DNA of 64,000 nt from positions 45,031-109,030 of the forward strand of contig JBKBRF010000023.1 in assembly GCA_046292385.1 (NCBI GenBank), in the 5' to 3' direction. How positions within the stretch are numbered: the stretch's first letter is position 1; every line of letters starts with the position of its first letter. Source of the stretch: Armatimonadota bacterium (lineage in GTDB: Bacteria > Armatimonadota > SYMT01). Positions 19,604-28,866 of this stretch are shown here, piece by piece. A program made the position numbers and the translations under genes. Below the pieces are notes generated by a model. It worked only from the letters and a program-made list of their open reading frames with translations, had not been told where the DNA came from and searched no databases.

Positions 19604-20566
19604 ATGCGACTACTCACCTTCGAAGTGGCCGGACGCTCCCGCCTGGGCGCGGAGTGGAACGGCTTTATCGCAGATCTACAGAACGTGGCCGCGCTTGCGG
19701 ACCTCGTGCAGTACGGCGCCGGCTCCGTGCCCGGGAGCATCGAGCGGTGCCCGTCGGATATGCTCTCCTACCTCCAGGGCGGCGAGGCGACCCGCGCGGT
19801 GGCGAAGGAGGCGCTCGGCTTCCTCGACATGCTCCAGGCCGACGTGGTCGACTCCCTCGCCGGAAACAGCGCCCTGCTCTACCGGGAAGAGCAGATCCGC
19901 CGGCGCGCGCCGATCTCCAACCCGAGCAAGATCATCTGCCTGGGGCTCAACTACCGCGACCACGCGGAAGAGAGCGGCATGGAAGTGCCGACGGAGCCGG
20001 TGCTCTTCTGCAAGTACGCCACCACCATCATCGGCCCCGGCGACACGATCGAGCTGCCGCACGACAGCGAGGAAGTCGATTACGAGGCGGAGCTGGTCTT
20101 CGTCATCGGCAAGCGGGGCCGGCACATTCCCCAGGACCAGGCGCTCGGCTACGTCGCCGGCTATACCTGCGGCCACGACGTCAGCGCCCGCGACTACCAG
20201 TTGAAGCGCGGCGGCAACCAGTGGATGGTCGGCAAGACCTGGGACACCTTCGCCCCGCTCGGCCCGGTGCTGGTTACCCCGGACGAAGGGATCGACCCGG
20301 AGAGCCTGCCGATCCGCTGCGTTCTGAACGGCGAGACGATGCAGGACTCGAACACCAACCAGTTCGTATTCGGCATCGCGGAGACGGTGGCGTATCTCTC
20401 CCGGATCATGACCCTGGAGCCGGGCGACGTCATCTTCACCGGCACCCCGCCCGGCGTCGGCTTCGCCCGCAAGCCGCCGGTCTTCCTGAAAGACGGCGAC
20501 GTCGCCGAGATCCAGATCGACGGCATCGGCAACCTGCGGAACCCGGTCTCCGCCGCGAAGCAGTAG
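19604..20566 (+). CDS. Fumarylacetoacetate hydrolase family protein
   Basis: CLGLNYRDH, DYEAEL, DVSARD, GKTWDTF and GDVIFTGTPPGVG motifs. Confidence 0.93.
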   Translation: MRLLTFEVAGRSRLGAEWNGFIADLQNVAALADLVQYGAGSVPGSIERCPSDMLSYLQGGEATRAVAKEALGFLDMLQADVVDSLAGNSALLYREEQIRRRAPISNPSKIICLGLNYRDHAEESGMEVPTEPVLFCKYATTIIGPGDTIELPHDSEEVDYEAELVFVIGKRGRHIPQDQALGYVAGYTCGHDVSARDYQLKRGGNQWMVGKTWDTFAPLGPVLVTPDEGIDPESLPIRCVLNGETMQDSNTNQFVFGIAETVAYLSRIMTLEPGDVIFTGTPPGVGFARKPPVFLKDGDVAEIQIDGIGNLRNPVSAAKQ

Positions 20567-20591
20567 GCACGGGTTCAGCGTCCGTACAAGT

Positions 20592-20630
20592 TGATGGCCG
20601 GGGGTTAACCCCCGGCCATCACGTTTTCTT
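20592..20630. terminator. Perfect 30-bp palindrome between convergent genes, probable terminator
   Basis: TGATGGCCGGGGGTTAACCCCCGGCCATCA followed by CGTTTTCTT. Confidence 0.7.
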
Positions 20631-20643
20631 CTATCCCATGAGT

Positions 20644-21501
20644 CTACGCCGGCACGACCGGCGGCATCGGCTTGCGGCGCTTTTGCTGCCAGATCTCGAT
20701 CACGTTGGCGATCGGTCCCACGGTGAAGAGCGCGTAGTACGGCGCATGGACGTTGCCGGAGAGCCGGAGCGCGCACTCCGCCGCCGCTACCAGGAACGCC
20801 ACCAGCACCTGCCCGCTCTTGCTCTGTACCGTCGTCTTCGGATCGGTGATCATGAAGAAGATGAAGAGCTGGTACATCGGGCCGGTAATCGGCGCCACCG
20901 TCGTCGCGAACGCCTGGCCGGTGATCGCCGCCCGCAGCGCCGCGAAGAGCACGAAGGAGAGGGCGTAGGTCAGGCAGATGTGGAACCGCTTGAGGCGGTA
21001 GATGATGATCGAGCCGATGGCCCAGATCACCAGCATCGGCCAGTGGATGTTGCCCCACTCGCCGCTGAGCGTGTGGACCGCCCACGGCGCCACGATCAGC
21101 GTCATGGCGATGCCGAAGTTGGACGGGTTCCAGATGTGGCGGCCTTCCCACCGGATCACGTACTTCGACATGATCGAGATCGCCGCGCAGAAGGCGTAGG
21201 GCCAGTAGACTCCCTCCGCGCGGAGCAGGATGCCGACGCTGATCCCGCTGATGTAGGCGCTGGCGAGGTGGGGCCACTTGCCGTAGTAGACCCGGCTGAA
21301 GATCAGCTCCGTCACGATCGAGGTGGCGATGGCGAGCAGAGTGCGGTCGAAGCTGACCAGCACGTTGAACTGCCAGTTCGCCACCAGCAGGATCGCGGTG
21401 ATGAAGATCGGCGCGATGTAGCGCTGGTCGAAGCCGCCCTTCCGCTTCTCGGGGATCGCCGTCGTCCCGGCGGGCGTCAGTGTGGTGGGCTCGGTGCTCA
21501 T
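20644..21501 (-). CDS. UnbU-like / RnfD-NqrB-related polytopic membrane protein
   Basis: SAYISGISVGILL, SKY....GRHIWNPSNFG and FFMITDPKT motifs; ATGA-coupled to the upstream gene. Confidence 0.8.
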   Translation of the reverse strand: MSTEPTTLTPAGTTAIPEKRKGGFDQRYIAPIFITAILLVANWQFNVLVSFDRTLLAIATSIVTELIFSRVYYGKWPHLASAYISGISVGILLRAEGVYWPYAFCAAISIMSKYVIRWEGRHIWNPSNFGIAMTLIVAPWAVHTLSGEWGNIHWPMLVIWAIGSIIIYRLKRFHICLTYALSFVLFAALRAAITGQAFATTVAPITGPMYQLFIFFMITDPKTTVQSKSGQVLVAFLVAAAECALRLSGNVHAPYYALFTVGPIANVIEIWQQKRRKPMPPVVPA

Positions 21502-23273
21502 GCCGATTCCTTCACATGGTGCCGCTTCCCGATCTCGGGAGCTTCAAGCGTCTGCCGGGTGCCGGAGGGCCAGAGGATCTCGACCTTGTCGATCTTCTCC
21601 GCCTCGCCCAGGCCGAAGTGGAGCCGCCGGCTGTTCTGCGCGGCGAAGCCGCTGCCGCCGGAGACCTGCTGGAGCTGCACCTTGCCGTCCCAGTAGAGCT
21701 TCACCTGGGCGCCGATGGCGCTCCGGTTGCTCTTCGTTCCTTCCAGCTCCAGCTCCACCCACCGGTGCTTCGGCTCGGCGTCGTTCCGGTAGAAGAGCAG
21801 CGGGCCGCGCTGGTGCGCCACGGCGACGTCGAGCACGCCCCGGTTCTGGAAGTCGCCCATCACCACGGCGCGGCCGTCGAACGTCTCACTCACGCCGACC
21901 TGCGGCGCGATGTCGACGAAGCGCTTTCCGTCCTGGCTCAGCCAGACCTTCTTCGGCTGGTAGCCGGCGAGGGTGCGGTTGTTCAGGGCCGGCCAGTTCA
22001 CGGCGTCGCTGATGATCGACCCGTGGGCGCCGGTGATTTGGGAGTAGTCGTGCCAGTAGCTGGAGCCGCGGTCGCCGGAGATGAAGCCGTTGGTGAGGAA
22101 GAGGTCGAGCCAGCCGTCGTTGTTCAGGTCGCCGAACTGCGCGCCGAACGCCCAGCCGCCCTCGGAGACGCCGAGCTCCGTCGCCCGCTCCTCGAAGCTC
22201 AAGGCGCCGCCGCCAGCGCCCTCGAGCGGCGACCAGAGGTTGTTGAGCTGCATCATCACGCCGCGCTCGCTGATGTTGGAGACGTAGGCGGCGAGCCGGC
22301 CGCTGTTGGTGATGTCGCCCAGGGAGACGTTCATGCCGCTGCGGGGATGGTCCGCGATGCCGACCGCCTTGCCGATCTCCCGGAACTTGCCGCCGTCGTT
22401 CGCGAAGTACTCCGCGTAGCCGTAGTCGTTGGCGATCACCAGGTCCGGGTAGCCGGTGCCGCGGAAGTCGCCGGCCATCGCCGCGAGCGCCCAGCGGTTG
22501 CTGTTGAGGCCGACCTTCGCGGTGACGTCTTCGAACTTGCCGCCGCCCGAGTTGCGGAGCAGGTACTTGCGGCCGCCGTTGGTGGCGTACTTGAAGCTGT
22601 CCGGCATGATCCGCGTGTCGCGCAGGCGGAAGAGGTCGACGTCCTCGCGGTAGTAGCCGCCGAGGAAGAGGTCGAGCCGGCCGTCACGGTCGTAGTCGAG
22701 CCAGACCGCGGAGTTGGCGTTCGCCCAGGCGGGAAAGCCCTGCACCTCCACGCGGGTCAGCTTCTTGCCGCCCTCGTTCCGGAACAGCTCCGGCCGGCCC
22801 CACTTGTAGAGGAACAGGTCCTCGAAGCCGTCGTTGTCGTAATCGCCCCAGACGGCGCCCATCGACACGCCGGTGCCGGGCTGGTTGACGTCCGCCACGC
22901 CCAGCTCGGCGGCGACGTCCTTGAACGTGCCGTCCTGCTGGTTGCGGTAGAGCCGGTTCTGGCTGCCCTCGGCGCTGTTGGTGACGTAGAGATCGTCCCA
23001 GCCGTCCCGGTCGAAGTCGACCACCGACGCCGCCGCCCCATACGAGGCGACGAGCGGCGAGATCTTCTCCAGCCGGGGGTCGAGCTGCGGCGCCTGGTGG
23101 GTGAAGTCGAGCCCCGCCTTGCGGGACGCCTCTTCCAGGCGGAAGCCGTACCGCTGGATCGCCAGCGAGGGATCTACCGCCGCGGTGGTCTTCATCTGCG
23201 ACCAGACCACCGGCGCCGCGAGGACGCCCACGAAGACGATACTCAGCCCGATTCGCGCGACGCGATTCTCCAT
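21498..23273 (-). CDS. CRTAC1 / ASPIC-UnbV family protein with FG-GAP repeats
   Basis: Repeated D(F/Y)D.DG..DL motifs; C-terminal SNRSAIGA.V and GSGF.AQN...LHFGLG; N-terminal anchor. Confidence 0.92.
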   Translation of the reverse strand: MENRVARIGLSIVFVGVLAAPVVWSQMKTTAAVDPSLAIQRYGFRLEEASRKAGLDFTHQAPQLDPRLEKISPLVASYGAAASVVDFDRDGWDDLYVTNSAEGSQNRLYRNQQDGTFKDVAAELGVADVNQPGTGVSMGAVWGDYDNDGFEDLFLYKWGRPELFRNEGGKKLTRVEVQGFPAWANANSAVWLDYDRDGRLDLFLGGYYREDVDLFRLRDTRIMPDSFKYATNGGRKYLLRNSGGGKFEDVTAKVGLNSNRWALAAMAGDFRGTGYPDLVIANDYGYAEYFANDGGKFREIGKAVGIADHPRSGMNVSLGDITNSGRLAAYVSNISERGVMMQLNNLWSPLEGAGGGALSFEERATELGVSEGGWAFGAQFGDLNNDGWLDLFLTNGFISGDRGSSYWHDYSQITGAHGSIISDAVNWPALNNRTLAGYQPKKVWLSQDGKRFVDIAPQVGVSETFDGRAVVMGDFQNRGVLDVAVAHQRGPLLFYRNDAEPKHRWVELELEGTKSNRSAIGAQVKLYWDGKVQLQQVSGGSGFAAQNSRRLHFGLGEAEKIDKVEILWPSGTRQTLEAPEIGKRHHVKESA

Positions 23274-23329
23274 AGCAGCTCCGTCCTACCGAATCGCGGC
23301 CACACCTGGTGACCGGCGGCCTCCGCGCG

Positions 23330-24349
23330 TCACTTCAGGGTGATGCTGGCGGGGCGAATGTCTTTCGGGATAAAGCGGCGGTCGATCAGCTCCGACATCG
23401 GCACCGGCCGCTCCAGGATACCCGCTCGCAGGCCCATCTCCTGGATGCGGTTCAGCTCCTCATCCGTGGGGGTGAGCATCCGGTAGCTCACGCGGTTGCG
23501 GGGCTGCGTCAGGACGTGGCGCACCACTTTCTCATCCTGACGGAAATACGGTGCGGCGAGCGCGGCGGCCTCCAGCCGGTGGGTTTCCGCCCATTCGCCG
23601 GACTCCGCGATGCCCCGTACCAGGTCGGCCACCACCTGGGGCTTTTCCTTGATCACCCGCTCGGTCACCACCAGGCAGCAGGAGATGAAGCTGGGCCACA
23701 CGTCCTTGATATGGTGGAGCACCCGCCCGGTACCGTCCAGCTCCGCCCGCGCTGCGTGCGGCTCGCCGATGATGTAGGCGTCGATCGCCCGCACGGCGAG
23801 CGCGCCCGGCATGTCCGGCGGCGGCATCTCGATGAACTTCACGTCGTTGGGTGAGAGCCCCCGGTCTTCCATCAGCTTGCGGATCACCAGGTACTGGTTG
23901 CTGTACTTGCTCGGGATGGCGACCGTCTTGCCGCGCAGTTCGCCCACGTCCTTCGCAGTCGAGTCGCTGCGGACCATGATCGTGGTGCCGTCGCGGTGGC
24001 CCAGGTAGGCGATCTTCACCGGGACGCCCTGCTCCCGCAGCTTCATGGCGAGCGGCACGATCATGAAGGAGGCGTCGAGGTGACCCGCCTTGATCGTCTC
24101 CACCACGGTGGGAAAGTCTGTAAAACGCTGCGACTCGAACCGAGTCGTCGTGCTGGTCTTCGACGCGAAGTCGGTGACCGGGCACGTCAGGTGTCACGTC
24201 ACCGGCAGGAAGCCGACCTTCAGCGTCTCCTTCGCCACCACCTGCGGCTCCTTCGCCGCCAGCGCCTCCCACGGCCGGAACCGGAGGACGCCGATGCCGG
24301 CGTAGACCGCCGCCACCGTGGCCCAGACTTTGATGCTCGATCGGGTCAT
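23330..24349 (-). CDS. NrtA/SsuA/NMT1-type ABC substrate-binding protein, probable selenoprotein (Sec at codon 52, UxxxC)
   Basis: GGGAG RBS and ATG 24349 in frame with the 23330-24106 ORF; N-terminal TM anchor; LKVGFLPVT-TGA-HLTCPVT; hairpin just 3' of the TGA; 339 aa with readthrough. Confidence 0.8.
24149..24193 (-). promoter_or_regulatory. Candidate bacterial SECIS element
   Basis: mRNA after UGA: CACCUGA CGUGC CC GGUC ACCGA CUUCG CGU CGAAG ACC A GCACG; lower stems CGUGC/GCACG and GGU/ACC, apical CUUCG/CGAAG with a GU-containing loop 28 nt from UGA; folded by eye. Confidence 0.55.
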
Positions 24350-24469
24350 GCTTTACTCCCGGACAACAGTTCTCGGATCCTTCTCGCCGCCCGTCCCGTG
24401 TCGGCCAACGCACCGCAGCTTGCCCCTGGCTCACGTTTCTTGCCGATGTGCCGCGTCAGCACCGCGGCT

Positions 24470-24730
24470 CCGACCCCGCGCCCTTGTGCCAGGAAGCAGC
24501 CCTCCCGCGACGACGGTCCTCCGCGCCCTTTTCACACTCCGCTGCGCTCCGTTAGCAGGGCGCTGCGGGAGTGCATCCCATCAGGCTCTGCCCGCGCCAA
24601 CAACCGGGGCTCCAATCAGAGGCTCGGTTCACGGGCTGCCTCCTGGCCCTTCGAGCGAACCCCCCTGCGCCCAGGGGGGTTCACAGGTGCCGTCCTCCGC
24701 CGCAGCCTGCGGCTGCACCTCCGGACGCCT
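24470..24730. repeat. About 300-nt structured dispersed repeat, copy C
   Basis: Homologous to the reverse complement of copy A; arms 24488-24502 / 24633-24647. Confidence 0.85.
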
Positions 24731-24782
24731 CGGAAACATGGTGGTCACCGACTAGGAGACCCCTTTCGGGAATCGCAGGTAC

Positions 24783-25068
24783 ACGCGCGATGGCTACCAG
24801 CGGAGCCCGTAGGTTCTGCCGTAGGCAGAGCCGGAGGGTTCCCCTTGTGACCACCCCTGGCGAGGGGTGGTTGCTTGAGCCGGGGGGAGCGGCCCGTGAA
24901 TCGCCGCGATGGTGCAGTCGCCGTGACCGATCGCGGCCCACAGCGGGACGGGGAGCACGCCCGGACCAGCCCGTTAGCCCGAAGGGCGTGGGAGGGCTGA
25001 GGGAGGGCCACTCACGCGGGAGGGCCGCTCCCCCCGGTGGGGGCACGGGGTGGAACTGCGGTGAGATG
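24783..25068. repeat. About 300-nt structured dispersed repeat, copy D (inverted relative to C)
   Basis: Perfect 16-bp arms 24880-24895 / 25022-25037; homologous to B and E. Confidence 0.85.
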
Positions 25069-25174
25069 TCTTGCCCGAAAAGTGGCGGAAGGCCTCCTGC
25101 TCGGGAGGCTGGGCCCACAGACGGGGAACGGTGCACGTGGGAGCTGTCACGATCGTAAGACACGGCAACCCTCC

Positions 25175-25916
<742 letters not shown>

Positions 25917-25927
<11 letters not shown>

Positions 25928-26687
25928 AACCCCACCGCACCTCCGGGAGCAGCGTGAGCCGCGCGAGCAGCCAGTCGAGCCCCATTCCGATCACTCCGAT
26001 CACCACCATGTGGCAGACGAGCCAGTCGGTCCGCAGCGCGTTCCGGTCGTCCCACACCGCAAAGCCGAGGCCGTTGATGCCCGCGATCATCTCGGCCGCC
26101 ACCACCACCATCCAGGAGACGCCGGCCGCTACCCGCAGCGCGGTGATGAACTGGGGCATGATCGCCGGCAGCGAGACCTTCGTGATCAGCTCCAGGCCCT
26201 TGTAGCCGTAGTCGCGGGCCACCCGGAACTGGACGGCCGGGATGTTCGCGACAGCGGCGCTGATCGAGAGCACCAGCGTGAAGAAGGTCCCCATGAAGAT
26301 CAGGAAGATGGCGGGCGCATCCCCGATCTTGAACCAGAGCACCGCGAAGGTGATCCAGGCGAGCGGCGAGAGATTGCGGAAGAAGTTGACCGCCGGCAGC
26401 AGGGCGAGGCGCGCCAGCCGGGAGTGCCCCATCCAGAGCCCCACCGGCACGCTGAGCGCCACCGCCACGCCGAAGCCGATCGCCACGCGCCAGAGGGACG
26501 CGGCCACGTCGGTCAGCATCCGGCCGCTCCGCACCTCGTGCGCGAAGCCTTCCAGCACCGCCTGCGGGGGCGGGAACGCCGACTTCGGATAGATCCCGAG
26601 CGCGGAGACGACGCTCCATGCCACCAGCAGCACGGCAAAGACCCCGAGCGGCAGCAGCAGCGTTTGGGCGGATGCGCGTTCCTTCAA
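25917..26687 (-). CDS. NitT/TauT-family (SsuC/TauC-like) ABC permease
   Basis: FPPP, SLWRV..GF, PLAW and W..VVAAEMI...GLG motifs; TTG start with GGAG. Confidence 0.93.
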
Positions 26688-26877
26688 GACTACGGCTCCG
26701 GTCGCGGGGGGAAAGCGGGCGGCGCGACGACTTCGACATACGTTGTTACGGGCCCCAACCGGGGCGGTCCTCCACCGGCGGCGGTCCCTTAACCGTTTCT
26801 AATGCCCGCCCTCCCCACGAAAAAAGTTCCTCCGCGCAGCGTCACGCCGCAACCGGGCCGCGCGTACCGGCTCTGAA

Positions 26878-27450
26878 ATGACGACCATGGACGCCGCCAT
26901 CACCGAATGCACCGCGGACGACGAGGCGATGCGGCTCGTCGCGGCCGGGGACAGCCAGGCGCTCGCGATGCTGTTCGAGCGTCACAAGACCCGGCTCTTC
27001 GGGTACCTCTGCCACGTCACGGGAGACCGGTCGCTGGCGGAAGACCTGCTGAGCGACGTCTTCCTGCGGGTCTACCGGGCGCGGGGCACGTACCGCCCCG
27101 GCAGCGGATTCGCGCCGTGGCTCTACCGGATCGCGCGCAACCTGGCGATCGGAGAGCTGCGCCGGCGCTCCACCTTCCGGAAAGTCTGGGACCGGCTGGT
27201 GCGGGAAGCGCGCACCGCCCCGACCGATCCGTGGGAGCCGTTCCGCGGGGAGGTGAAGGAGCAGGTGCAGGCGGCGCTCTCCCTCCTGCCGGAGGAGCAG
27301 CGCTCCGCGCTGGTGCTGAAGGAGTATGCCGACCTGAGCTACCGTGAAGTGGCGGAGGTGCTGGGCTGCACCGAAGAGGCGGCCCGGGCGCGCGCCTACC
27401 GGGCGCGGATGAGCCTCCGGGAGTCGCTGCGCGAGTATGTCGATGCGTGA
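26878..27450 (+). CDS. ECF sigma-70 factor
   Basis: AEDL..DVFL, F..WLYRIARN and LSYREVAEVLG motifs. Confidence 0.93.
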   Translation: MTTMDAAITECTADDEAMRLVAAGDSQALAMLFERHKTRLFGYLCHVTGDRSLAEDLLSDVFLRVYRARGTYRPGSGFAPWLYRIARNLAIGELRRRSTFRKVWDRLVREARTAPTDPWEPFRGEVKEQVQAALSLLPEEQRSALVLKEYADLSYREVAEVLGCTEEAARARAYRARMSLRESLREYVDA

Positions 27451-27478
27451 ACGCGTCGGGAGCTAGGAATTCGGGAGT

Positions 27479-27961
27479 ATGCAGTATTCGGATCGATCCC
27501 TGACTTGCGCCGACGCCGCTCCCCTGCTGCCGGCCCTCGGCGACCTGCCGGAAGCCCGCCGTCGGGAAGTCGTCCTGCATCTCGAGTCGTGCGTCTCCTG
27601 CGCGGCGGAGGCGCGGGCCTACCGGGCCGTCGACGCGCTGGTCCGCGACGACCCGTTCCCGGGCGTGCCGCTGCCGAGCGGGCGGAGCGTGGTGACCGGA
27701 ATCCTGGAGCAGGAGGCGGCGCGCGCCCGGCCGTCGTGGAGCCGGTGGGCCTGGGCGCCCGCGGCGGCAGTGGCGGCCTCACTGATCTTCGTCGCCGCGC
27801 GCCCGGAGCCGGCGCCGACCCCTGTGCCGGCCCCTGCGGTCGAGGTGGAGCCGCTGCCCGTGCTGCGCATCGTGGACGACGAGCAGGGGCGCAGCGTGTG
27901 GCTCTCCTCCCCCACCGCGGCCGACGCGGGCGACCGCGAGCGAGCGGACCGCAAGCTGTGA
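27479..27961 (+). CDS. Zinc-binding (ZAS-type) transmembrane anti-sigma factor
   Basis: HLESCVSC (HxxxCxxC) and one TM helix, directly downstream of the ECF gene. Confidence 0.8.
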   Translation: MQYSDRSLTCADAAPLLPALGDLPEARRREVVLHLESCVSCAAEARAYRAVDALVRDDPFPGVPLPSGRSVVTGILEQEAARARPSWSRWAWAPAAAVAASLIFVAARPEPAPTPVPAPAVEVEPLPVLRIVDDEQGRSVWLSSPTAADAGDRERADRKL

Positions 27962-28866
27962 TGCGCCTGTTCCGCGCATCGGTAGCTGCCCTGGCGTTTG
28001 CTCTCGCTGGAGCGCTCGGGCTGTCCCCCAGCTCCGCGGCGGCGCAGGAAGCGGTATCCGACGGGCTGCGGATCCGGGTGGTGGAGCTGGCGCAGAGCGT
28101 CGACCTCTCCCGCGGCAAGGAGCGGTTCCTCACCGTGACGGTCGAGCTTTCCGCCGCCGACCCGGTGCGCCTCCGGCGCGTGCAGCCGCTGCGGGACGAC
28201 TTTACGGTGCTGGCGGGTAAGGCGATGCTCCCCTGCCGCTGGCTTCGCGGCGGCTCCCTACCGGAAGATCCTACCCGGCTGCGCTTCACCCTCGGCTTCT
28301 CCCTTCCGCCGCCGGGCACCGCTCGCGTCGCCCTGCAGGCGAACCTGCCGCGCCTGGACGGCGGCGAGGCGCTCGAGCTGCGGCTGGACGATCTCTCCGC
28401 CGGCCAGACCCGGAAAGGCCCGGGCTGGACACTCACGGTTCAGGCCTTCTCCCCCGAGAGCTACGATCCACCCGCCGTGCCGCCGAAGGGCACGTTCATC
28501 TCCAAGCTCGGCCCGGTCGACGCGCGCGTCTTTCGGAAGCAGAGTCCCAAAGCCGGTGAGCCGGACCGCGCCGTGCTGCTGCGGATCCACTCGGAAGACA
28601 CCGCGCTCTACGACCCGATCCTCGACGTCTCCGGGAATCTGCTGGTCGACGGCCGGCCGGGCCCCGCGCTCCTCTCCGCGCGGATGCTGCGGGAGCCCTC
28701 TCGCACCGTGGAGAAGCCGCCGGCCGGCCCGTTCGTCCGCGGCGAGTTCTACTTCCCTGTCCCCGCGAAGGGGCGGCCCACCGGAGCGGTGATCCGTCTC
28801 CACCGCCGCGGCGCCGGCACCGAAAAGCCGGTGCTCCTGCGCGACCTGCCGGTGCCGAGTGTCTGA
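27961..28866 (+). CDS. Hypothetical secreted protein
   Basis: TGATG coupling to the anti-sigma gene; signal peptide ending AAAQ. Confidence 0.7.
   Translation: MRLFRASVAALAFALAGALGLSPSSAAAQEAVSDGLRIRVVELAQSVDLSRGKERFLTVTVELSAADPVRLRRVQPLRDDFTVLAGKAMLPCRWLRGGSLPEDPTRLRFTLGFSLPPPGTARVALQANLPRLDGGEALELRLDDLSAGQTRKGPGWTLTVQAFSPESYDPPAVPPKGTFISKLGPVDARVFRKQSPKAGEPDRAVLLRIHSEDTALYDPILDVSGNLLVDGRPGPALLSARMLREPSRTVEKPPAGPFVRGEFYFPVPAKGRPTGAVIRLHRRGAGTEKPVLLRDLPVPSV

Follow-up and report, generated by a model that had tools for sequence, protein, structure and literature searches.

Introduction

Is an ABC transporter gene that is interrupted by one stop codon a damaged gene, or does it encode a selenoprotein that has been cut short in annotation? 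The question is raised by the minus strand of the window, by which we mean the whole stretch of 64,000 nucleotides that was analysed. Positions 23330-24349 form 340 codons there, and frame translation gives one internal stop, a TGA at codon 52. The ORF list splits the gene in two: 23330..24106 (minus strand, 258 aa, GTG start) and 24194..24349 (minus strand, 51 aa, ATG start). A sequence-only reading had joined them into a hidden selenoprotein, an ABC substrate-binding protein (SBP) whose UxxxC motif begins with selenocysteine (Sec). We argue that this core claim is strongly supported. Proteins of this kind are a recent discovery. Sec-containing ABC SBPs (SaoB and SaoX) were first described in 2022-23 and were called unexpected. 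The SBP studied here belongs to that class and is a new member of it.

The reading frame and its start

The coordinates of the gene, its parts and its neighbours are collected in Table 1. The same-frame extension to an upstream ATG, the GGGAG ribosome-binding site and the hydrophobic anchor that the sequence-only reading had reported are all present in the sequence. Frame translation likewise confirms its single in-frame TGA with a Cys four codons on. The signal-anchor lies 5' of the TGA and is therefore missing from the truncated gene calls. This N-terminal region is kept in the Cys homologs, where L19, R23, P26 and W27 are nearly invariant. In some relatives (loci L027 and L028) the anchor position is taken by a lipoprotein-type signal ending in Cys. 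A scan of 23200-25300 gave no promoter-like sites. The terminator scan of the same interval gave one site, which lies within the SBP gene on the opposite strand and is no more than shuffled sequences yield. An Rfam scan of 20000-28000 at E <= 1 gave no match, the spacer upstream of the SBP gene included.

Table 1. Features of the SBP locus in window coordinates
Feature	Position	Strand	Basis
Full predicted selenoprotein gene, 339-residue NMT1/SsuA-type ABC SBP	23330..24349	-	Single frame, one internal TGA
Start ATG of SBP gene	24349-24347	-	Read from sequence
Terminal stop of SBP gene, also TGA	23332-23330	-	Frame translation
Shine-Dalgarno-like GGGAG, 6-nt spacer to ATG	24356..24360	-	Read directly from sequence
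N-terminal hydrophobic signal-anchor, residues 4-24	24278..24340	-	Sequence and single helix in AF2 model
Predicted Sec codon UGA, residue 52, motif PVT-U-HLT-C-P	24194..24196	-	Cys/TGA column in homologs
Candidate SECIS hairpin, starts 8 nt past UGA	24150..24185	-	MFE structure and consensus of 9 Sec forms
Spacer of 825 bp between ATPase and SBP genes, with dispersed genomic repeat	24350..25174	.	Insertion relative to close relatives
ABC transporter ATP-binding subunit, same system	25175..25927	-	Pfam ABC_tran E 6.3e-29
ABC transporter permease subunit, NitT/TauT type	25917..26687	-	NCBIfam best matches
FG-GAP / UnbV_ASPIC repeat protein, 591 aa, downstream neighbour	21498..23273	-	FG-GAP_3 E 5.3e-40, UnbV_ASPIC E 1.1e-23
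RnfD/NqrB-like membrane protein, 285 aa	20644..21501	-	NQR2_RnfD_RnfE E 1.3e-09

UGA-52 as a selenocysteine codon

Codon 52 stands in the context KVGFLPVT-U-HLTCPVT, with Cys56 four codons after it. Full-length homologs that are about 70% identical align to the SBP from residue 1 through to the end. Column 52 is Cys in 15/15 aligned close homologs, and the PVTCHLTCPVT block is invariant among them; the residue in homologs is neither Trp nor variable. The phylum sample comprises 401 genomes. The SBP gene is found in 60 of these, 9 of them with one TGA. We inspected the codon in 38 of the 60. It is TGA in all 9 homologs flagged with one TGA, and TGC or TGT in 29/29 of the TGA-free genomic homologs examined.

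The sequence-only reading treated this as one odd gene, which underestimated its scale, as the family is large and spans several phyla. An exact-pattern scan of species-representative genomes found at least 121 further cases, and all 121 of those listed read LPVT*HLTCPV in frame. The 80 listed matches with flanks are all homologs of the SBP (38-72% identity), and the best alignment crosses the TGA in 78 of them. The frame is open and conserved either side of the TGA in every TGA-bearing homolog of the phylum sample and of the matches listed. By this comparison of sequences, the recurrence of TGA at one column is far past chance. Other sequencing data agree with the assembly as well: contigs from runs X3 and X5, which belong to two independent studies, retain TGA at codon 52. 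In contigs of run X7, near relatives have TGC. One contig of the RNA-library run X15 spans the codon, but it derives from a relative with 12 differences and so is no proof that the SBP gene is transcribed.

A candidate SECIS hairpin follows the UGA. It consists of a lower stem (GUGC/GCAC), a middle stem (GGUC/GACC), an upper stem and an apical loop. The consensus of 9 Sec forms, numbered from the U of the UGA, has pairs 12-47 to 15-44, 18-42 to 21-39, 24-36 and 25-35. Two of these pairs show compensatory changes among the 9 forms: 21-39 is CG in 6, GC in 2 and UA in 1, and 24-36 is GC in 6 and CG in 2, with one CU mismatch. The hairpin is found in 9/9 Sec forms of the phylum sample and is missing or weaker in 25 Cys forms. 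Mean 60-nt MFE is -18.6 kcal/mol for 8 Sec forms versus -10.0 for the 25 Cys forms. In other lineages the hairpin found at this place after the UGA is a different one. It must be noted that stability across the wide set (n=117) is only moderately above codon-shuffled controls, with a mean z of -1.4 and 26% of cases below -2.

The genome that carries the gene has the machinery to insert Sec, which the sequence-only reading had proposed to look for. Its selA (577.9 bits), selB (367.5 bits), selD (362.3 bits) and tRNA-Sec (66.6) all score above the curated cut-offs, and selD itself has one TGA. In the phylum sample selA was detected in 8/9 Sec-form genomes and not found in the remaining one, G267, which is 92% complete. 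We also considered selA as a link between the transporter and selenium use in general. It is present in 43/60 genomes with the SBP gene versus 218/401 of the whole phylum sample, and none was seen in 16/51 Cys-form genomes. Among related genomes such an excess is modest, and we do not take it as support.

One can imagine that the TGA is an ordinary stop. The gene would then be a pseudogene or carry a nonsense mutation, or it would yield two products (a 51-residue membrane peptide and a leaderless protein of 258-286 residues), or the assembly would be in error. Automated calls do read it as a stop (P0002, 286 aa; P0003, 258 aa), and the Engelhardtia mirabilis ortholog has an NCBI record of 332 aa. 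We consider this extremely improbable, since 9 phylum-sample and at least 121 species-representative genomes have the same TGA column and no other stop, and the protein is conserved on both sides of it. The hairpin accompanies the TGA forms and is missing or weaker in the Cys forms, the Sec machinery is present and the TGA is retained in independent contigs. Were translation to start after the TGA, the product would also be without both the first core beta-strand and the signal-anchor. Within the reach of sequence analysis, UGA-52 is a genuine Sec codon and not a defect, because of the Cys at its column, its recurrence, the hairpin, the Sec machinery and its persistence in independent contigs.

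Distribution of Sec and Cys forms

Sec and Cys forms are interspersed in a 34-row tree, which was made without three Cys rows (a VAFLP variant missed by the motif pattern) and the fragmentary copy of genome G004. Well-supported branches force at least 3 Sec/Cys switches, and parsimony gives 7. We rejected a single origin of the Sec form on these grounds. Close relatives differ in having Sec or Cys, even species within one genus. Judged by their record titles, the listed pattern matches are mostly from Planctomycetota and Acidobacteriota, and those titles are typical of aerobic soil and water bacteria. Among the listed carriers are Engelhardtia mirabilis Pla133, a planctomycete in culture with a complete genome sequence, and the isolate Myxococcus sp. 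RHSTA-1-4.

Fold and family

Pfam NMT1_2 matches the SBP over residues 40-265 (E 8.5e-30, 104.8 bits against a cut-off of 24.7). An initial AF2 model, for which 16 close homologs were used, stayed below pLDDT 50 over residues 23-66 and was discarded. The model used here was built from an 87-sequence alignment and has a mean pLDDT of 95.2. Its best Foldseek match is 3un6 (E 2.3e-27, TM 0.90, rmsd 1.9 over 293 columns), and it also matches SsuA, TauA and NrtA at E <= 1e-18. The assignment to the NrtA/SsuA type in the sequence-only reading thus holds by both Pfam and Foldseek. The SBP falls outside the SsuA family proper, as TIGR01728 (SsuA_fam) gives 131 bits against a cut-off of 163.5. There is no clade-specific equivalog among the families matched by 87 family members. 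The first core beta-strand of the model is residues 41-47. Residue 52 is predicted to lie in the short turn joining this strand to the first helix (55-65), and residue 56 is at the start of that helix. In this fold the strand-helix turn lines the ligand cleft.

Comparison with known systems

SaoX, the substrate-binding lipoprotein of the SAO system, is of the same NMT1/SsuA-like SBP superfamily, and its model NF040735 matches 79/87 members of the SBP family. Like the SBP here it is partnered by a NitT/TauT-type permease and ATPase, and Sec stands in place of Cys in some members; the accessible text of Haft and Gwadz describes it as occasionally a selenoprotein. The SBP is not SaoX, since NF040735 scores 67.4 bits on it (residues 81-277, E 1.1e-18) against a cut-off of 300. 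Going by its description in the same text, the Sec of SaoX aligns near residues 191-192 with the latter of two adjacent Cys (a CC motif), whereas here the motif is U52-HLT-C56 in the first strand-helix turn. That text also has the conserved Cys residues of SaoX converging in the cleft and reports the SAO system in anaerobes only. Another source gives the SaoX motif as UxP (PMC13188914). No SAO family other than SaoA and SaoP was matched among the SBP neighbours scanned.

SaoB is also an extracytoplasmic ABC SBP. Its Sec lies at what is presumed to be a ligand or metal site, and older annotation truncated it in the same way. The SaoB model NF040727 has no match to the SBP at E <= 0.01. In the Haft and Gwadz preprint SaoB is described with a CU dipeptide, an SAO context and a homology to other SBPs that is only remote, in contrast to the U-HLT-C found here. 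The CU motif and the other gene context that the sequence-only reading gives for SaoB agree with the preprint. Another SBP-type protein with predicted Sec is the BtuF-like cobalamin-binding protein (PMC13188914, Table 1). Its domain (cd01144) and its CxxU motif, as that part of the review gives them, are both unlike those of the SBP here.

The closest solved structure is PDB 3UN6, a Staphylococcus aureus ABC SBP with zinc (sequence E 1.3e-38, TM 0.90). It is 24% identical to the SBP, with His at the position of Cys/Sec52 and Leu at that of Cys56. SBPs like 3UN6 are encoded beside clade B Ni-CODH genes (PMC6344411, PMC13592312), and in an AlphaFold 3 model of one, two Cys and one or two His hold a metal (PMC13592312). 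The accessible parts of these two papers report no Sec forms for the CODH-associated proteins. There is no CODH gene among the genes annotated at about 16.1 to 32.8 kb of the window. SsuA, TauA, NrtA/CmpA, ThiY and PqqT share the fold (Foldseek E 1e-16 to 1e-20) and the transporter architecture at 15-22% identity to the SBP. To our knowledge the Cys/Sec-His cluster of the SBP family is not a feature of any of them.

Transporter partners and neighbouring genes

The permease and ATPase genes lie upstream of the SBP gene on the same strand, and they adjoin it in relatives too. The best NCBIfam match of the ATPase is SaoA, at 193.6 bits and below its cut-off of 360. The permease gives 154.1 bits with SaoP (cut-off 295) and 125.2 bits with TauC. 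Permease and ATPase adjoin the SBP in 4/4 loci from other lineages, and one or both are within 1.2 kb of it in 37/80 loci. The spacer between ATPase and SBP contains a repeat for which the genome has 65 further matches, at 67-83% identity. In genomes G001 and G006 only about 60-200 bp separate the matched stretches of ATPase and SBP. We consider it highly probable that the locus as a whole encodes a Sec-containing, membrane-anchored SBP of a three-gene NitT/TauT-type ABC importer.

Downstream, the FG-GAP/UnbV_ASPIC and RnfD-like pair is near the SBP in 12/31 loci examined, the window included, and was not seen in the four loci from other lineages. The FG-GAP/UnbV_ASPIC protein is a lineage-specific neighbour of the transporter. 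In the Sec-form genome of locus L038, a gene for a P1B-type ATPase with an HMA domain precedes an orphan SBP gene by 82 nt, and this is the only one of 31 loci with such a neighbour. A CorC/CNNM gene adjoins the SBP in two genomes of one genus, and the remaining neighbours are unrelated to one another. Gene context was rejected as a basis for naming the substrate. The neighbours vary, and since nothing outside the three transporter genes is kept from lineage to lineage, context says nothing on the cargo.

What residue 52 may do

If residue 52 is Sec, what is it for? A profile alignment to 3un6, whose entry title states that zinc is bound, pairs Cys52 and His118 each with a His, and Cys224 with a Cys. 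Position 52 in 49 distant relatives is Asp in 20, His in 12, Cys in 6, another residue in 7 and a gap in 4. His118 is kept in 41 of these relatives and Cys224 in 36, and His118, Cys224 and His198 are co-conserved. The alignments suggest that residue 52 is a soft ligand to a metal bound in the cleft, given the His at this place in zinc-bound 3UN6 and the Asp, His or Cys of distant relatives. Our tentative preference, somewhat short of an even chance, is that a thiophilic metal ion in the cleft is ligated by Sec52, Cys56, His118 and Cys224, with His53 and His198 as possible further ligands. The sequence-only reading proposed more broadly that the protein binds a soft metal, a metalloid or a ligand that reacts with thiols, and judged from sequence this is plausible.

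The mechanism we propose would begin with UGA-52 being decoded as Sec by SelA, SelB, SelD and tRNA-Sec, directed by the hairpin downstream. With the permease and the ATPase, the SBP would form an importer in which it is the membrane-anchored extracytoplasmic subunit. A metal ion would be held in its cleft by the Sec52 cluster, resembling the zinc in 3UN6. This metal centre would capture the solute to be transported, which is probably a small anion, before the SBP passes it to the permease. The usual cargoes of NitT/TauT-type permeases are small anions or organic solutes, which counts against a metal cation as the cargo without establishing a cofactor role for the metal.

Two other roles for the cluster must be weighed against such a metal centre. 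Sec52 and Cys56 could be a redox-active selenenylsulfide pair, with the ligand (a sulfane-sulfur, selenium or other electrophilic species, for example) captured or sensed by covalent thiol or selenol chemistry and no metal. Cys56 is found in 38/38 close homologs and is Cys in just 2/49 distant relatives, which mostly have Leu. It is clade-specific and so would have arisen together with Cys/Sec52. In the model residue 52 is in a turn and residue 56 begins helix 1, a geometry typical of redox Cys pairs. Redox motifs of the UxxC/CxxU type are also present in most catalogued bacterial selenoproteins (PMC13188914, Table 1). However, the spacing here is UxxxC and not the usual UxxC, and the class II SBP fold is not thioredoxin-like. 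The Asp or His that most distant relatives have at position 52 is a better fit to metal or ligand coordination, and the co-conservation of His118, Cys224 and His198 also argues against a redox pair. We think such a pair unlikely.

The Sec/Cys cluster might instead bind an imported soft metal, metalloid or organometallic substrate directly, as proposed for the SAO system. We doubt this. After generic models it is indeed SaoX, SaoA and SaoP that score best for the three subunits, yet they reach only a quarter to half of their cut-offs, SaoB is unmatched and the SAO context is absent. The orphan SBP gene beside a P1B-type ATPase would fit a metal substrate, as would the CorC/CNNM gene in two genomes of one genus, but the P1B-ATPase is a neighbour in 1/31 loci. 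We know of no metal-cation importers among NitT/TauT permeases, and this too counts against a metal substrate. Finally, the record titles of the listed carriers point to aerobic bacteria, while Haft and Gwadz describe the SAO system from anaerobes exclusively.

Implications

SaoB and SaoX are confined to a rare anaerobe system. The SBP family is separate and far more widespread. It is absent from the 119-family prokaryotic selenoprotein inventory of a 2026 review (PMC13188914), and our literature search found no paper linking selenocysteine to NMT1 substrate-binding proteins or the TauT family. Public gene calls truncate the SBP, and members of the family are now wrongly annotated, as proteins that are cut short at the N-terminus and have no export signal. 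As no NCBIfam model covers the family, annotation pipelines are expected to go on truncating it.

Close relatives with Sec and with Cys are natural matched pairs for the contribution of Sec in an extracytoplasmic binding site. The cultured carriers put 75Se labelling, metal analysis and ligand screening within reach. The most far-reaching reading is of a large, unrecognised multi-phylum selenoprotein family in which a Sec-Cys-His extracytoplasmic metal site captures a small anion or chalcogen species. We regard this full combination as quite unlikely. Examples of cargo under it are a sulfur or selenium compound and bicarbonate-like ligands. If true, a Sec-ligated metal site would be described for the first time in a solute receptor with a defined, testable cargo. 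Prokaryotes have no known uptake system that is both specific for selenium and of high affinity (PMC13188914), and such a site could bear on that question.

Reading frame and evidence for selenocysteine

The gene for the substrate-binding protein (SBP) appears in the ORF list as two pieces. The sequence-only reading had taken these as one frame with a single internal stop, a TGA at codon 52, and the sequence is as claimed. The upstream ATG, its GGGAG and the hydrophobic N-terminal helix are also there: residues 4-24 are hydrophobic and form a single helix in the structure model. Both the export signal and the first core beta-strand lie 5' of the TGA.

Coordinates of the SBP gene, its neighbors and the selenocysteine genes
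Feature	Position	Strand	Remarks
ORF piece, N-terminal	24194..24349	-	51 aa, ATG start (ORF list)
ORF piece, C-terminal	23330..24106	-	258 aa, GTG start; same frame as 24194..24349 (ORF list)
Full SBP frame	23330-24349	-	340 codons read through; terminal stop also TGA
Putative Sec codon TGA, codon 52	24194-24196	-	sole internal stop; context KVGFLPVT-U-HLTCPVT
Start codon ATG	24349	-	GGGAG upstream, 6-nt spacer
Spacer with dispersed repeat	24350-25174		825 bp between ATPase and SBP genes
ABC ATPase	25175-25927	-	upstream of SBP, same strand
Permease, NitT/TauT-type	25917-26687	-	upstream of SBP, same strand
ECF-type sigma factor gene	26878-27450	+	about 190 bp upstream of permease gene, opposite direction
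selA, selD, tRNA-Sec, side by side	contig C11 of the same genome, about 87438-90122		outside the window; same strand (L009, L010, L012)

We argue that UGA-52 is very probably decoded as selenocysteine (Sec), and the argument begins with the homologs. Relatives of the SBP number in the thousands. Among the full-length ones, the nearest (336-381 aa, about 70% identical) all align across the site. Column 52 is Cys in 15 of 15 aligned close homologs, inside an invariant PVTCHLTCPVT block. In a sample of 401 genomes of the phylum the gene is found in 60, and 9 of these carry exactly one TGA. The codon at column 52 was examined in 38 of the 60 genomes; it is TGA in 9 (the Sec forms) and TGC or TGT in 29 (Cys forms).

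A degenerate DNA pattern for PVT-TGA-HLTCP was also scanned against a collection holding one genome per species, and it hit at least 121 loci. All 121 among the matches listed have LPVT*HLTCPV in frame and open on both sides. Eighty of the loci were taken with their flanks. All are homologs (38-72% identity). In 78 the best alignment runs across the TGA and contains a single stop; in the other two it begins downstream of the site. By a hand count of record titles, which carry submitters' labels, 37 are Planctomycetota-type, 32 Acidobacteriota-type and 11 other or unclassified. The last group includes a Myxococcus isolate and MAGs labelled Sericytochromatia, Heliobacteriaceae and Chthonomonadales. 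The SBP family is large and spans several phyla. Every close homolog examined has Cys or TGA at this column with both flanks conserved, and the TGA recurs in 9 genomes of the phylum sample and at least 121 species-representative loci.

The genome has selB, selA, selD and tRNA-Sec, all over curated cut-offs, so the machinery that the hidden-selenoprotein reading needs is present. Its selD carries one in-frame TGA, and therefore there is at least one further selenoprotein gene. Eight of the nine Sec-form genomes have selA; it was not found in the ninth, G267, which is 92% complete. No selA was found in 16 of 51 Cys-form genomes. It is present in 43 of the 60 genomes with the SBP gene versus 218 of the whole 401, the gene-bearing genomes being related to each other.

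The TGA is real and not an assembly error, since contigs from runs X3 and X5, sequenced in two other independent studies, cover the site unchanged. Near-relative contigs from a soil metagenome (run X7) have T>G at plus-strand position 24194, which turns the TGA into TGC (Cys). Contigs matching the window occur beside them in the same run. This shows that a natural Sec/Cys difference exists among closely related strains or species. Together the Cys homologs, the recurrent TGA, the Sec machinery, the independent contigs and the hairpin described next give the selenoprotein reading good support.

Candidate SECIS hairpin

All 9 Sec forms in the phylum sample share a hairpin whose start lies 8 nt after the UGA. 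Numbered from the U of UGA, its pairs are 12-47 to 15-44, 18-42 to 21-39, 24-36 and 25-35. There are compensatory changes at pair 21-39 (CG in 6, GC in 2, UA in 1) and at pair 24-36 (GC in 6, CG in 2, one mismatch). The mean folding energy of the 60 nt from the UGA is -18.6 kcal/mol in 8 Sec forms versus -10.0 in 25 Cys forms, even though the encoded peptide is nearly identical. Compared with codon-shuffled controls the signal is moderate (mean z -1.4 over 117 distinct sequences).

Among the pattern matches in other genomes (L084-L204) the hairpin sits at the same place right after the Sec codon but differs by lineage. The PVTSWVT type, the most frequent among the matches listed, has the hairpin GGUCACC-AGUUG-GGUGACC, in which the codons for VT..VT build the stem around the AGUUG loop. 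In the PVTDWINKN type the hairpin is long, CCCC...CCGACUGG. Because lineages have different hairpins here, the SECIS and the coding sequence appear to have co-evolved in this family.

Sec and Cys forms are interspersed in a maximum likelihood tree of 34 sequences, which omits three Cys rows missed by the motif pattern and one fragmentary Sec copy. At least three Sec/Cys changes fall on well-supported branches, and parsimony counts 7. Some very close pairs are mixed: within a single genus, for example, Sec form G335 pairs with Cys form G233, and Sec form G192 with Cys form G031.

Transporter and gene neighborhood

Residues 40-265 match NMT1_2 (Pfam, E 8.5e-30). In NCBIfam the protein scores highest against the generic SsuA family (131 bits, cut-off 163.5), followed by SaoX (67.4 bits, cut-off 300), and no curated NCBIfam model claims the SBP or any of the 87 members of the family alignment. 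An AlphaFold2 model built from that alignment has a mean pLDDT of 95.2. Its best PDB match is 3un6 (E 2.3e-27, TM 0.90, rmsd 1.9), an ABC binding protein of S. aureus crystallised with zinc, followed by SsuA, TauA, NrtA/CmpA, ThiY and PqqT. Since the protein has this domain and fold and ATPase and permease genes lie upstream on the same strand, it serves as binding subunit in an ABC importer of three genes.

The spacer between the ATPase and SBP genes holds a repeat that matches the rest of the genome 65 times (67-83% identity). At about ten places the match is full-length, about 570-640 bp long (query about 100-740). Its two halves, about 280 bp each, are also found singly, and some places match the opposite strand too. 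No Rfam family matches it. In close relatives only about 60-200 bp separate the matched stretches of the ATPase and the SBP, which suggests that the repeat is an insertion within the operon. It is possible that the ECF-type sigma factor regulates the operon.

An FG-GAP/UnbV_ASPIC protein of about 600 aa and an RnfD-like membrane protein are both near the transporter in 12 of the 31 loci, among them that of the window. A conserved TPR/FG-GAP/UnbV_ASPIC protein of about 1150-1230 aa is often nearby in the window's lineage; at six loci (L064, L065, L078, L082, L036 and L034) it adjoins the FG-GAP and RnfD-like proteins. Four loci of other lineages share only the permease and ATPase as neighbors. 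It must be noted that the SBP gene of one Sec-form genome is an orphan (L038, 7149-10391): neither the permease nor the ATPase is encoded within about 10 kb of it. The gene for a P1B-type heavy-metal ATPase, which has an HMA domain, ends 82 nt upstream of this orphan, and a DUF6174 gene comes after it. In two genomes of another genus an orphan copy adjoins a CorC/CNNM-type gene.

Binding site and possible role

The model places residue 52 between strand 41-47 and helix 55-65, in the turn that follows the first strand and that, in proteins of this fold, lines the ligand cleft. Aligned with 3un6, position 52 falls on His, His118 on His and Cys224 on Cys. Position 52 varies among 49 distant relatives: Asp in 20, His in 12, Cys in 6, another residue in 7 and a gap in 4. 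They retain His118 (41/49), Arg119 (46/49), Glu196 (44/49) and Cys224 (36/49). Cys56 and His198 are particular to the SBP clade. For a 3UN6-like SBP encoded beside a clade B CO dehydrogenase, PMC13592312 reports an AlphaFold 3 model in which two Cys and one or two His coordinate a metal.

Our tentative reading of these residues is that Sec52, Cys56, His118 and Cys224 might together coordinate a thiophilic metal inside the cleft. The metal would aid the capture of a small solute, and the SBP would hand that solute to the permease. One can imagine instead that a metal or metalloid is itself the cargo. The heavy-metal ATPase beside the orphan gene can be set next to this candidate, which we think improbable; the neighbors at the 31 loci of the lineage and four others, along with selA co-occurrence, identified no cargo. 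Sec52 and the clade-specific Cys56 could also form a putative redox-active pair, but we consider this unlikely.

Relation to known selenoproteins

Table 1 of a 2026 review (PMC13188914) has 119 selenoprotein families and subfamilies. It contains just three binding proteins (SaoX, SaoB and one that is BtuF-like), none of which is of NMT1/SsuA type or carries a UxxxC motif. Our literature search found no paper on Sec in an NMT1/TauT-type SBP; the BSepDB family table lay outside its scope, so an earlier description is possible. The Haft and Gwadz preprint describes SaoB as having a CU motif and no more than remote homology to other SBPs, and reports both SaoB and SaoX exclusively from a nine-gene system found in anaerobes. 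The present family differs from both in family, motif, reported Sec position, gene context and carrier organisms. It joins the Sec-containing ABC binding proteins, a class recognised recently, as a new member.

The protein collection has the SBP solely as shortened calls of 286 and 258 aa. The NCBI record of the Engelhardtia mirabilis ortholog, named 'ABC transporter substrate-binding protein', has 332 aa and begins past the TGA; the UniRef name starts 'Bicarbonate-binding'. The family is shortened in current annotation as well as missing from the PMC13188914 catalogue. Cultured carriers exist, so tests of its ligand and of the role of selenium are practical.
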